Of a stretch of 64,000 nucleotides of DNA, positions 158-54,216 are shown in pieces. A program made the position numbers and the translations under genes. This DNA comes from Escherichia coli. Its GTDB lineage: Bacteria; Pseudomonadota; Gammaproteobacteria; Enterobacterales; Enterobacteriaceae. The stretch lies in assembly GCF_013122565.1 (NCBI RefSeq), contig NZ_CP053258.1. One strand, given 5' to 3'. Under the pieces are notes generated by a model. That model saw nothing but the letters and a program-made list of their open reading frames with translations. It searched no databases and was not told where the DNA came from. Numbering within the stretch: the stretch's first letter is position 1; each line of letters starts with the position of its first letter.

Positions 158-232
158 TGCCGATAAGGCGTTTGCGCCGCATGAGCCGGGAGCCTGTACC
201 GGATGCGATGCTTACGCATCTTATTCGGCCTA
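158..232. repeat. REP (repetitive extragenic palindromic) element pair just downstream of xseA
   Basis: Two inverted copies of the GCCGGATGCG...CGCCTTATCCGGCCTAC-like motif (gccgataaggcgtttgcgccgcatgagccgg / ccggatgcgatgcttacgcatcttattcggcctac) read directly in the sequence. Confidence 0.7.
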
Positions 233-1606
233 CGGGGTCACCACTTTTTTGCGTGGTTTGCGGGTTTTTGTGACGTCGCTCACCACGCTTACCACTACGC
301 CATCATTCAAACGCGTGGTTAATGTATCGCCCGCTTTCACTTGCTTAACCTGCTTCAACACCGCTCCATCTGCGGCGCTGGTGACGCTATAACCGCGCGC
401 CAGCGTTGAAAGTGGGCTGACGGCTTCCAGGTGCGTTACCGCATTACCGAAACGTTCACGCGTGGCGCTAAGCTGTGTGCGCAGGGTTTCCGCTACACGA
501 TACTCCAGTTGCTGAATGCGGGATTGTGCGCGATGAATACGCGTTTGTGGATTTTGTTGATTCAGCCGTTGCGTGAGCCGCTGCTGTTGCTGCCCGGCAC
601 GCTTAAGCTGATTTTCCAGCGCAAAGCTCATCCGTTTTTGCAGGCGTTCAAGCATGGTTTGCTGGCGTGCCAGCCGGAGCTGCGGATGCTGTTGCTGTAA
701 TCGGTGATGAATCTGCGTAAAGCGACGCGTCCGGTTGGCGAGATAATAATCCATCGCCATCTCCAGCCGTTGACGGGTCGATTGCACCTGGCGCAGTAAC
801 TCTTGTTGATTGCGGCTCACTACTTCAGCGGCGGCAGACGGTGTTGGTGCACGCAGATCGGCAACAAAATCGGCAATGGTCACATCCGTCTCATGCCCGA
901 CGGCGCTGACGACCGGAATGCGACTGTCAAAGATCGCCCGCGCTACACGTTCGTCGTTAAAACTCCATAAATCTTCCAGCGAACCGCCACCGCGCCCAAC
1001 GATCAATACGTCACACTCGTTGCGCTGATTCGCCATTTCAATGGCGCGAACAATTTGCCCTGGCGCGTCATCACCCTGAACGGCGGTGGGGTAGATGATC
1101 ACCGGCAAAGACGGATCGCGACGTTTTAACACATGCAAAATATCATGTAGCGCAGCACCGGTTTTTGAGGTGATCACACCGACGCAGTGCGCGGGGGAGG
1201 GAAGTGGTTTCTTTAACTGCTGATCGAACAAACCTTCTGCCTGCAACTTCGCTTTGAGCTGTTCGTACTTCTGTTGCAGAAGCCCTTCACCGGCCGGCTG
1301 CATACTCTCAACGATTATCTGGTAGTCGCCGCGCGGCTCGTAGAGCGTAATATTGGCGCGAACTAAAACTTGTTGCCCATGCTGTGGGCGGAAGGTCACC
1401 CGGCGGTTGCTGTTACGGAACATCGCGCAGCGCACCTGGGCGGTATCGTCTTTGAGCGTAAAGTACCAGTGACCGGAGGCTGGTTGCGTGAAATTAGAAA
1501 TTTCGCCGCTGATCCACACCTGTCCCATCTCATGCTCAAGCAGCAGACGAACCGTTTGATTCAGGCGACTAACGGTAAAAATTGCAGGGGATTGAGAAGG
1601 TAACAT
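230..1606 (-). CDS. xseA: Exodeoxyribonuclease VII large subunit
   Basis: 458-codon ORF; translation [39 protein letters not shown]... matches XseA as I recall it (OB-fold N-terminus, coiled-coil C-terminus); divergent from guaB as in E. coli. Confidence 0.93.
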
Positions 1607-1698
1607 GTGAGCGAGATCAAATTCTAAATCAGCAGGTTATTCAGTCGATAGTAACCCGCCCTCCGGGGATAGCAAGCATTTTTTGCAAAAAGGGGTAG

Positions 1699-1714
1699 AT
1701 GCAATCGGTTACGC
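1699..1714 (+). promoter_or_regulatory. Putative PurR operator overlapping the guaBA promoter
   Basis: gatgcaatcggttacg resembles the PurR box consensus ACGCAAACGTTTGCGT (about 11/16) and lies between the candidate -35 and -10; guaBA is a known PurR-regulon member. Confidence 0.4.
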
Positions 1715-1718
1715 TCTG

Positions 1719-1724
1719 TATAAT
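1719..1724 (+). promoter_or_regulatory. guaBA promoter -10 hexamer (TATAAT) with GC-rich discriminator
   Basis: Perfect TATAAT 44 bp upstream of the guaB ATG, followed by GC-rich gccgcggc typical of growth-rate-controlled promoters; the upstream region is A/T-rich (UP-element-like ttttttgcaaaaa). Confidence 0.55.
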
Positions 1725-1767
1725 GCCGCGGCAATATTTATTAACCACTCTGGTCGAGATATTGCCC

Positions 1768-52316: not shown

Positions 52317-52383
52317 TAGCCTGCGCAGACAAACCCGACTTCACAGCGTAAGATAATTGTTCATTTCGCGCTGTGGAGTCGGT

Positions 52384-52959
52384 ATGACGCAACAAATCAC
52401 CCTCATTAAAGACAAAATTCTCTCCGATAACTATTTCACCCTGCACAACATTACCTACGATCTCACGCGCAAAGATGGCGAAGTTATCCGCCATAAACGT
52501 GAAGTTTACGATCGCGGTAATGGTGCGACGATCCTCCTGTACAACGCGAAGAAAAAGACCGTGGTTCTGATTCGTCAGTTCCGTGTCGCTACCTGGGTTA
52601 ATGGCAATGAAAGCGGGCTGCTGATTGAAACCTGCGCCGGGCTGCTGGATAACGACGAACCGGAAGTGTGCATTCGCAAAGAAGCGATTGAAGAGACGGG
52701 CTATGAAGTGGGCGAAGTGCGCAAATTATTTGAACTGTATATGTCGCCTGGCGGTGTGACTGAGCTAATCCACTTTTTTATCGCCGAATACAGTGACAAT
52801 CAGCGCGCTAACGCCGGTGGCGGTGTCGAAGATGAAGATATTGAAGTGCTCGAGCTGCCGTTCAGCCAGGCGCTGGAGATGATCAAAACCGGCGAGATAC
52901 GTGACGGTAAGACGGTGTTATTGCTTAACTATTTGCAAATGTCACATTTAATGGACTGA
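52384..52959 (+). CDS. nudK: GDP-mannose pyrophosphatase (Nudix hydrolase)
   Basis: ORF trimmed to [20 protein letters not shown]... (191 aa); Nudix box (REAIEETGY). Confidence 0.9.
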
Positions 52960-53084
52960 AAAATAACAATAATATTTCGTTGTTTATTATTGGCTCAATC
53001 CGACAAATCCGATTGAGCCGCGCTACCTGCGCAACGAAGATACGACTTGTGCTGTTTGTTTGAACTTCTGGGGTCGTACCGTCC

Positions 53085-54128
53085 ATGCGCTATCGCATTT
53101 TCCTTCTCTTTTTTTTCGCTTTGTTGCCGACGTCTTTGGTGTGGGCGGCACCAGCGCAACGGGCGTTTTCCGACTGGCAGGTCACCTGTAATAACCAAAA
53201 CTTCTGCGTGGCGCGTAATACGGGCGATCATAATGGACTGGTGATGACCCTGAGCCGCAGCGCCGGGGCGCATACCGATGCCGTTTTACGTATTGAGCGC
53301 GGCGGGTTGAAGTCGCCGGATGCGTCTGAAGGGGAAATTGCGCCACGGCTGCTGTTAGATGGCGAGCCGTTGGCGTTAAGTGGTGACAAGTGGCGGATTT
53401 CACCATGGTTACTAGTAACCGATGATACGGCAACCATCACCGCGTTTTTGCAGCTGATTCAGGAAGGGAAGGCAATCACCTTACGCGATGGCGATCAGAC
53501 CATTTCTCTGAGTGGCTTAAAAGCAGCGTTGTTGTTTATTGATGCTCAGCAAAAGCGCGTTGGCAGTGAAACCGCGTGGATCAAGAAAGGGGACGAACCG
53601 CCGCTCAGCGTACCGCCCGCGCCTGCGCTGAAAGAGGTCGCGGTGGTTAATCCAACGCCGACACCACTCTCACTCGAAGAACGTAACGATTTGCTGGATT
53701 ATGGAAACTGGCGGATGAATGGTCTGCGCTGCTCGCTTGATCCATTGCGTCGAGAGGTGAATGTCACTGCGCTGACTGATGATAAAGCGCTGATGATGAT
53801 TAGCTGTGAGGCAGGGGCCTATAACACCATTGATTTGGCATGGATTGTGTCGCGTAAAAAGCCGCTGGCCTCGCGCCCGGTTCGGTTGCGTTTGCCGTTC
53901 AACAACGGTCAGGAGACGAATGAACTGGAACTGATGAACGCAACATTTGATGAGAAATCGCGTGAGCTGGTGACCTTAGCGAAAGGGCGCGGATTAAGCG
54001 ATTGTGGCATTCAGGCGCGCTGGCGCTTTGACGGTCAGCGTTTTCGCCTGGTGCGTTACGCCGCAGAACCCACCTGCGATAACTGGCATGGGCCAGACGC
54101 CTGGCCCACGCTGTGGATCACCCGTTAA
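53085..54128 (+). CDS. ypfG: Periplasmic DUF1176 protein YpfG
   Basis: 347 aa; signal peptide MRYRIFLLFFFALLPTSLVWA; several Cys residues; function unknown. Confidence 0.85.
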   Translation: MRYRIFLLFFFALLPTSLVWAAPAQRAFSDWQVTCNNQNFCVARNTGDHNGLVMTLSRSAGAHTDAVLRIERGGLKSPDASEGEIAPRLLLDGEPLALSGDKWRISPWLLVTDDTATITAFLQLIQEGKAITLRDGDQTISLSGLKAALLFIDAQQKRVGSETAWIKKGDEPPLSVPPAPALKEVAVVNPTPTPLSLEERNDLLDYGNWRMNGLRCSLDPLRREVNVTALTDDKALMMISCEAGAYNTIDLAWIVSRKKPLASRPVRLRLPFNNGQETNELELMNATFDEKSRELVTLAKGRGLSDCGIQARWRFDGQRFRLVRYAAEPTCDNWHGPDAWPTLWITR

Positions 54129-54146
54129 ACAAAATAGCGGGGACAT

Positions 54147-54216
54147 GTAGACCGGATAAGACGCTGTAGGCCGGATAAGACGCGTCAGCGTCGCATCCGG
54201 CAATCAGCATCCGGCG
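54147..54216. repeat. REP element cluster between ypfG and tktB
   Basis: gtagaccggataagacgctgtaggccggataagacgcgtcagcgtcgcatccggcaatcagcatccggcg. Confidence 0.8.

Follow-up and report, generated by a model that had tools for sequence, protein, structure and literature searches.

REP Elements in the Window

The window analysed here is a stretch of 64,000 nucleotides (nt) from an Escherichia coli chromosome (contig NZ_CP053258.1). Between the 3′ end of xseA and the eut genes it takes in guaBA, ppk-ppx, purMN, hda, the hyf operon, dapA-bamC, purC, dapE, acrD, and tktB-talA, and is colinear, in reverse orientation, with about 2,572,150 to 2,635,450 of E. coli K-12 MG1655 (98.2–98.6% identity). Clusters of short imperfect palindromes lie between an island adhesin gene and xseA (site 1), hda and yfgD (site 2), bamC and purC (site 3), ypfH and ypfN (site 4), and ypfG and tktB (site 5). 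These are very probably (at about 93%, in our estimate) ordinary E. coli repetitive extragenic palindromes (REPs, or palindromic units) of the Y and Z types, among the several hundred REP or bacterial interspersed mosaic element (BIME) loci of the chromosome. The closest of 5,426 complete E. coli genomes is about 98.8% identical to the window, with a cryptic-clade Escherichia at 95.6% and E. albertii at 89%; since no complete E. coli genome comes closer, the lineage is, judged by identity, E. coli in the broad sense but poorly represented in that collection.

A profile built for nhmmer from 16 K-12 REPs outside the region (the yjdM-yjdN array REP325 and both rayT flanks) gave nine matches in the window at E ≤ 0.0065, seven of them full-length or nearly so and two partial. 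Every one falls inside the five intervals that a first-pass annotation, made from the letters alone, had marked as REP palindromes; that annotation had proposed just such a search as its test, and it neither missed a REP locus nor included a false one, and named the flanking genes correctly. The best match beyond the five sites had E = 0.7 and lay in coding sequence, and shuffled windows gave weak matches only, so that in 64 kb a simple profile is enough to tell REPs from background with no false positives, a clean worked example. Rfam lacks a family for REPs as such, and at its gathering thresholds nothing in the window was matched. A permissive search matched naRNA4 (RF02564) at exactly these five sites, with 28 to 58.9 bits against a gathering score of 59.5; the top score belongs to site 4 (58.9 bits over 42833-42892), and site 1 reaches 42.8 bits over 162-230. 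Stable imperfect hairpins are predicted on either strand at all five clusters, and each unit's hairpin is present in the minimum-energy fold, with cluster z-scores against shuffles from −2.5 (site 1) to −6.8 (site 2).

The window units resemble the E. coli REP types Y, Z1, and Z2 of the Bachellier classification (PMC3333891) in being imperfect palindromes of 28–40 nt with a 5′ GTAG and conserved GATAAG...CATCC arms, in being extragenic and mostly at convergent junctions, and in having the same sequences at the same four K-12 loci. They differ in nothing essential, although several are decayed (GTGG for GTAG, a lost bulge, half units). GTAG is found in seven of the nine (1b, 2a, 2b, 3, 4a, 5a, and 5b, numbered by site and lettered in window order), unit 1a having CATG and unit 4b GTGG instead. 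All nine are intergenic, the sole gene overlap being the xseA stop codon within a GTAG. A 37-mer from unit 3 has a median of 7 matches per E. coli genome, even under the 28-nt exact-word requirement of megablast. K-12 carries 355 REP elements, or about 584–697 units, in 4.64 Mb (PMC3333891; 10.64898/2026.03.23.713779), and five loci with nine units in 64 kb represent the genome-average density. The REP elements of the window are thus already known: REPs and BIMEs have been in the literature since the 1980s, and K-12 shares four of the five loci. As members of a known element class they carry little weight for discovery.

Structure of the Five Sites

At site 1, unit 1a (158..190, + strand) begins 9 nt past the adhesin stop codon (147-149). 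It is a degenerate Y-like fragment without GTAG, with a 1-nt deletion in its left arm and a 2-nt insertion in its right, and it matches positions 11-33 only of the profile hidden Markov model (HMM; window 162-182, E 6e-5). Unit 1b (196..233, − strand; nhmmer 199-234, E 2e-7) is a Z-like REP with an extra stem mismatch and an intact GTAG at 233-230. The last three bases of this GTAG are the xseA stop codon TAG (232-230, minus strand), the xseA open reading frame occupying 230..1606.

Site 2 is a head-to-head pair of a REP and an inverted REP (iREP), BIME-like or resembling a REP doublet forming a hairpin (REPIN). Unit 2a (17776..17811, − strand; E 5e-8) is a Y-type REP of the variant GTAGTTCGG...CCGACAA, identical in K-12; in the hda transcript its orientation is that of an iREP, and its start is 12 nt past the hda stop codon (17761-17763). 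A 22-nt linker, GCGAAGTTAATCCATAGTATTC (17812..17833), joins it to unit 2b (17834..17873, + strand; nhmmer 17832-17873, E 8e-12), a Z2-type REP with GTAG, separated by 27 nt from the yfgD stop codon (17903-17901). In the predicted fold, the units pair with each other about the linker, giving one long hairpin (−63.6 kcal/mol, z −6.8). The sequence GTAGATAAGG (17760-17769), which holds the hda stop codon, was considered as a REP start that has lost five bases; this finds no support in the profile, and the resemblance is probably coincidence. A separate hairpin with a 10-bp stem, ATGTGCTTC...GGAGCACAT, is present at 17872-17899, between the yfgD stop codon and the REP, and is not followed by a T-run.

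Site 3 holds a single Y-type REP with GTAG, unit 3 (38173..38209, + strand; nhmmer 38173-38207, E 1e-7; fold −27.4 kcal/mol, z −4.6), with REP-arm stubs on both sides of it, TTGTCGGA at 38164-38171 and ACATCCGGCA at 38210-38219. Units 2a and 3, 20 kb apart, are both of the uncommon variant GTAGTTCGG...CATCCGACAA, with 97% complementarity between them over 37 nt. The likeness hints at copying of one from the other, or at homogenisation; the search with the unit 3 37-mer across E. coli does not separate the TTCGG/ACAA subtype from other Y units.

At site 4 a REP and an iREP stand tail-to-tail with a 3-nt linker. Unit 4a (42830..42857, + strand; E 3e-4), which starts 10 nt past the ypfH stop codon (42817-42819), is a Z-type REP with GTAG that has been shortened: compared with the K-12/SC477 allele it has lost 10 nt internally, which leaves a perfect 8-bp stem with no bulge. 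Unit 4b (42861..42894, − strand; nhmmer 42862-42892, E 7e-8) starts 5 nt past the ypfN stop codon (42902-42900) and is a Y-type REP with GTGG for GTAG, from which an 11-nt deletion relative to K-12 has removed CTACGGTTGAG.

The centre of site 5 is unit 5b (54166..54204, + strand), a canonical full-length Z2 REP with GTAG, identical in K-12 (nhmmer 54164-54204, HMM positions 1-41, 47.8 bits, E 6e-14). Unit 5a (54147..54165, + strand), 18 nt past the ypfG stop codon (54126-54128), is the 5′ half of a Z2 REP, GTAGACCGGATAAGACGCT (nhmmer 54146-54165, HMM positions 2-21, E 6.5e-3), and represents a 19-nt tandem duplication of the start of unit 5b; it is missing from a 252-nt allele. On the other side, a repeat of the REP 3′ arm, CAGCATCCGGCGATC (unit 5c; 54205..54219, + strand), is a unit of roughly 14 nt whose copy number varies among strains by allele alignment; its end is 4 nt short of the tktB stop codon (54226-54224, minus strand), and in the fold it forms an outer stem with 5a. 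This outer stem could be read as a REP inserted in the loop of another REP; tandem slippage is preferred, since the 19-nt left and 14-nt right units vary independently.

Pairing and Comparison with Known Systems

The first-pass annotation described several of the clusters as BIME-like pairs. Profile matches, alleles, and folds uphold this for the REP/iREP combinations of sites 2 and 4, weakly for site 1 (one REP with a degenerate, GTAG-less partner), and not for site 3, a singleton with stubs, or site 5, where the partial duplications are direct, not inverted.

As inverted Y/Z pairs, site 2 (Y-iREP and Z2-REP, head-to-head) and site 4 (Z-REP and Y-iREP, tail-to-tail) resemble BIME-2 or atypical BIMEs, but they are single-copy rather than in tandem arrays, unit 4a has been cut to a Z1-like length by deletion, and sites 1, 3, and 5 are not proper pairs. 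BIME-1 elements consist of Z1 and Y units in single copy, joined by a conserved long L linker with an integration host factor (IHF) site (PMC3333891). The site 2 linker is 22 nt long with no match to the IHF-type consensus WATCAANNNNTTR by eye, and that of site 4 is 3 nt, so neither is a BIME-1; nor does the window hold a REPtron, a tnpA(REP)/rayT gene flanked by REPs. The REPINs of Pseudomonas (PMC3116915) are, like site 2, two inverted REPs and a spacer forming one long hairpin, and share the association with a single-copy REP-associated tyrosine transposase (RAYT). They belong to another sequence family and RAYT group, however, and the evidence for replication as doublets belongs to Pseudomonas. 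REP325, from which some of the profile sequences came, is the experimentally studied model, both an mRNA stabiliser and a partial Rho-dependent terminator (10.64898/2026.03.23.713779). It has unit types in common with the window sites, as does the naRNA4 family, but consists of 12 units between the tandem genes yjdM and yjdN, whereas the window loci have one or two units, mostly at convergent junctions, and score below the Rfam threshold.

Occupancy among Strains and Genera

The sites were compared across the 5,426 complete E. coli genomes with queries in which the REP cluster makes up more than 20% of the length, a site being counted as occupied when at least 80% of the query was covered. Allele shares given as estimates are extrapolated from 40 evenly spaced rows of each ranking and are not direct counts. 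Site 2 is occupied in 5,418, site 3 in 5,425, and site 4 in 5,403 of the genomes (each at least 99.6%), and K-12 has REPs at sites 2–5, four of the five positions. The K-12 counterparts are at 2,617,965-8,062 (site 2), 2,597,684-718 (site 3), 2,592,977-3,057 (site 4), and 2,581,659-717 (site 5). The alleles differ in detail: at site 2, one with a 32-nt deletion that takes most of 2a, and with GTCG in 2b, makes up an estimated 13%; at site 4, the window type (243 nt) accounts for about 46% and the K-12 type (272 nt; full Z2, intact CTAC, and a Z unit without GTAG) for about 53%, with a rare 260-nt intermediate; at site 3, no length variation was seen among the 5,426 genomes. Strain A11 appeared to lack most of site 4 and was treated as a poor assembly, having many frameshifted genes nearby.

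Outside the species, Escherichia sp. MOD1-EC7003 and E. albertii have both site 3 and site 4 occupied, and Escherichia sp. E1V33 and E. whittamii have site 4 occupied; in most other genera both junctions are short and REP-free. The ypfH/ypfN spacer, for example, is 108–149 nt with two REPs in Escherichia species, 64–103 nt with one related REP in several Citrobacter, and in most other genera 30–47 nt with only a simple hairpin. In Enterobacter cloacae it is filled by a motif similar to the dispersed repeat CCCCTCGCCCCTCTGGGGAGAGGGTTAGGGTGAGGGG described below.

Site 5 behaves differently. The coverage threshold is passed by 4,726 of the 5,426 genomes, some of them non-REP genomes that cross-align; in 836 (15%) the REP is replaced by a GC-rich dispersed repeat of roughly 60 nt, CCCCTCGCCCCTCTGGGGAGAGGGTTAGGGTGAGGGG, leaving the REP in about 85%. 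The repeat has a median of 7 matches per genome; at site 5, where it replaces the orthologue of window 54129-54223, it is probably a BoxC element. Among the REP-bearing alleles, the form shared by the window and K-12 is estimated at 58%, that without the 19-nt duplication at 22%, and one with an extra 14-nt repeat at 2.5%. Other genera have lineage-specific REP-like palindromes in the ypfG/tktB spacer.

Site 1 is different again and is hypervariable: none of the 5,426 genomes carries the window's arrangement, and an exact search with the unit 1b 37-mer in 100,044 species-representative genomes found no match. Bases 1-149 are the 3′ end of a roughly 8-kb "adhesion domain" gene, which in carrier strains lies downstream of a SinI-family gene; K-12, which is without the adhesin gene and the adjoining island, has no counterpart of the site. 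We take this island to resemble the CS54 island of Salmonella, between xseA and yfgJ. Over roughly its last 150 nt, xseA is 80–83% identical to other E. coli (92.9% in one strain, over a partial match), against 98% for the remainder of the gene, and there is what looks like a recombination breakpoint within xseA at about position 384. The REP content of site 1 differs among related strains. Strains SCU-306 and NGF1 have a 35-nt REP beside the xseA stop codon that is precisely absent in VCSW7 and is bounded on both sides by CTA. This difference is compatible with cleavage of the C^T type attributed to the E. coli transposase RayT, but is suggestive only, because the 3-nt microhomology would equally permit slippage. 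Site 1 would represent turnover at an island border, which has also rewritten a protein C-terminus and supplied its stop codon. The diverged xseA end gives the XseA protein a variable C-terminal tail.

With four positions common to K-12 and three of them in essentially all E. coli, the REPs appear to be old residents that change by deletion, duplication, and replacement, and the junctions long-standing REP landing or retention sites rather than places of recent insertion. As far as alleles can tell, sites 2–4 are anciently fixed and are decaying by small deletions and duplications, and presence/absence polymorphism is real at sites 1 and 5 only; this was the outcome of the strain comparison, which the first-pass annotation had suggested as a way to detect recent insertion or loss. 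Three behaviours are found side by side in 64 kb: fixed but decaying elements (sites 2–4), replacement by another repeat family (site 5), and turnover at an island border (site 1).

Gene Junctions and Possible Effects on mRNA

Counted from K-12 gene order, 8 junctions of the window are convergent, 39 tandem, and 8 divergent, and REPs occupy 4, 1, and 0 of these, respectively (Fisher p = 0.001). The bias is in line with published figures of about 60% for convergent, 40% for tandem, and 1% for divergent junctions (10.64898/2026.03.23.713779). It also bears out the first-pass description of the sites as convergent or 3′ intergenic, except for site 3, which is geometrically 3′ of bamC but, being past the bamC terminator and an operator for PurR, probably in the 5′ leader of purC (below).

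Three of the four REP-free convergent junctions have strong hairpin-plus-T-run terminators: guaA/yfgI (4905-4932), focB/yfgO (21022-21051), and acrD/ypfM (45079-45149). No such terminator was found at the REP-bearing convergent junctions, and no T-run follows any REP in the window. In the window, REPs and canonical terminators thus occupy different convergent junctions, and this small sample fits a use of REPs as 3′-end structures where an intrinsic terminator is absent. Of the eight, only the ppx/pdeF junction (9143-9182, about 38 nt) lacks both a REP and a recognisable terminator hairpin. At the ypfM/acrD junction, a sub-threshold Rfam match to STnc250 (45035-45154; 37.5 bits against 42) overlaps two strong back-to-back terminator hairpins.

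Transcribed REP hairpins are known to shield upstream mRNA from 3′ exonucleases and to act as partial Rho-dependent terminators, in a strongly context-dependent way (10.64898/2026.03.23.713779). By analogy, hairpins in the 3′ ends of the flanking mRNAs in the window would block 3′-to-5′ exonucleases and possibly cause partial Rho-dependent termination. In this way they might set the transcript 3′ ends and levels of xseA, hda, yfgD, ypfH, ypfN, ypfG, and tktB.

The distances from stop codon to REP are short in several cases: 0 nt for xseA, 5 for ypfN, 10 for ypfH, and 12 for hda. A REP this close to a stop codon (up to about 15 nt) can reportedly stall ribosomes and, through trans-translation, lower protein output.

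RayT and Mobility

A tblastn search with K-12 RayT found no RayT gene in the window (best match E = 0.51 over 18 amino acids), as the first-pass annotation had stated; the K-12 rayT gene is at 247.6 kb, far from this region. E. coli RayT binds folded single-stranded REPs (PMC8266576; PMC3333891) and cleaves at CT in vitro (PMC3333891); it tolerates no mutation of GTAG and requires a bulge in the stem (PMC8266576). By sequence, GTAG and a bulged stem (AA/GC mismatch) are both kept in units 2a, 2b, 3, and 5b. Folded single-stranded DNA of these four, and perhaps of 1b, could therefore be a substrate for a single-copy RayT/TnpA(REP), presumably encoded elsewhere and thought to spread and rearrange REPs. 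Units 1a (no GTAG), 4a (bulge lost), 4b (GTGG), and 5a (a half unit) should be inert relics, because the required features are gone. The proposal that the clusters are transposase substrates, also made from the letters, is accordingly tenable for the first group of units and fails for the second.

Alternative Explanations

One alternative is that the clusters are recent insertions of active mobile REPINs or BIMEs, marking recent events in this strain. Several observations would suit it: the form of site 1 found in no complete E. coli genome; the precise, CTA-bounded presence or absence of a 35-nt REP, with the C^T dinucleotide expected from the cleavage rule (PMC3333891); a site 5 REP in about 85% of genomes, with another repeat in its place in 836; and the unusual variant GTAGTTCGG...CCGACAA common to units 2a and 3. 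We nevertheless consider it improbable. Each of sites 2, 3, and 4 is filled in at least 99.6% of E. coli, and sites 3 and 4 are filled also in E. albertii and a cryptic-clade species, hence are older than E. coli itself; the allele differences are small internal deletions and duplications of the kind that decay would produce; and site 1 lies in a recombined segment beside a genomic island, so that transposition is not needed to explain why it is unique.

Two other explanations seem very unlikely. The hairpins might be simple bidirectional terminators of convergent gene pairs, resembling REPs only incidentally: other genera do have short GC hairpins at the corresponding junctions (as between ypfH and ypfN in Citrobacter sp. 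HRGM0066 and in Kosakonia), and the REP-free convergent junctions of the window carry canonical terminators. Against this, the profile, made from REPs of unrelated loci, matches with E-values down to 6e-14, GTAG and the GATAAG...CATCC arms are present, none of the hairpins has a T-run after it, and the 37-mer core of unit 3 occurs a median of 7 times per genome. As to identity, incidental resemblance is effectively refuted by the REP profile and the naRNA4 matches; as to function, termination overlaps with the roles proposed above for REPs. Alternatively, the paired units might be transcribed into nucleoid-associated RNAs like naRNA4, working with the protein HU in chromosome organisation. The naRNA4 model does match all five sites, site 4 only just below the gathering score (58.9 against 59.5 bits), but every match is below it, and the model was derived from a REP325 unit and so recognises any Z2 and Y pair. 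In addition, REP325/naRNA4 is reported to give no measurable nucleoid compaction, and no REP-REP contacts were seen (10.64898/2026.03.23.713779).

The explanation we favour, that these are ordinary, mostly old REP elements acting at transcript 3′ ends and serving in part as RayT substrates, has some points to weigh on the other side. The stabiliser and terminator roles at these particular loci are taken over from the literature; RayT-driven transposition of REPs is undemonstrated in vivo (10.64898/2026.03.23.713779); and site 3 does not match a model based on 3′ untranslated regions (UTRs).

The purC Leader

Site 3 has the following order on the + strand: the bamC stop codon (38058-38060), an intrinsic terminator (38067-38088 with its T-run), a −10-like TATGAT (38098-38103), the PurR operator ACGCAAACGTGTGCGT (38104-38119), the REP, the purC Shine-Dalgarno sequence, and the purC ATG (38273). 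The operator sequence is the motif given for purC in a chromatin immunoprecipitation study of PurR (PMC3159470); terminator, −10 element, and operator are all conserved across Enterobacteriaceae. Unit 3 has the operator 54 nt upstream and the ATG 63 nt downstream. Because both the PurR operator and the bamC terminator precede it, it is most likely located in the purC 5′ leader, and not in a 3′ UTR. Any effect of this REP would then fall on the purC mRNA itself.

The REP is carried by a block of about 101 nt (38134..38241, + strand) with GATTTTA direct repeats at both ends. It is conceivable, though we think it unlikely, that this block is a genus-specific 5′-UTR regulatory element affecting purC mRNA stability, translation, or premature termination. 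If so, a REP would be acting on a gene from its 5′ rather than its 3′ side, and this is the only case in the window that might open a new regulatory question. The block's GATTTTA flanks are consistent with this possibility, as is its distribution: it is limited to Escherichia, being present in 5,425 of the 5,426 E. coli genomes, E. albertii, and a cryptic-clade Escherichia, and absent from about 60 other Enterobacteriaceae, so that the bamC-purC intergenic region measures 212 nt as opposed to about 106–111 nt in most other members of the family. Salmonella enterica arizonae has a different REP-like insert at the same point between bamC and purC.

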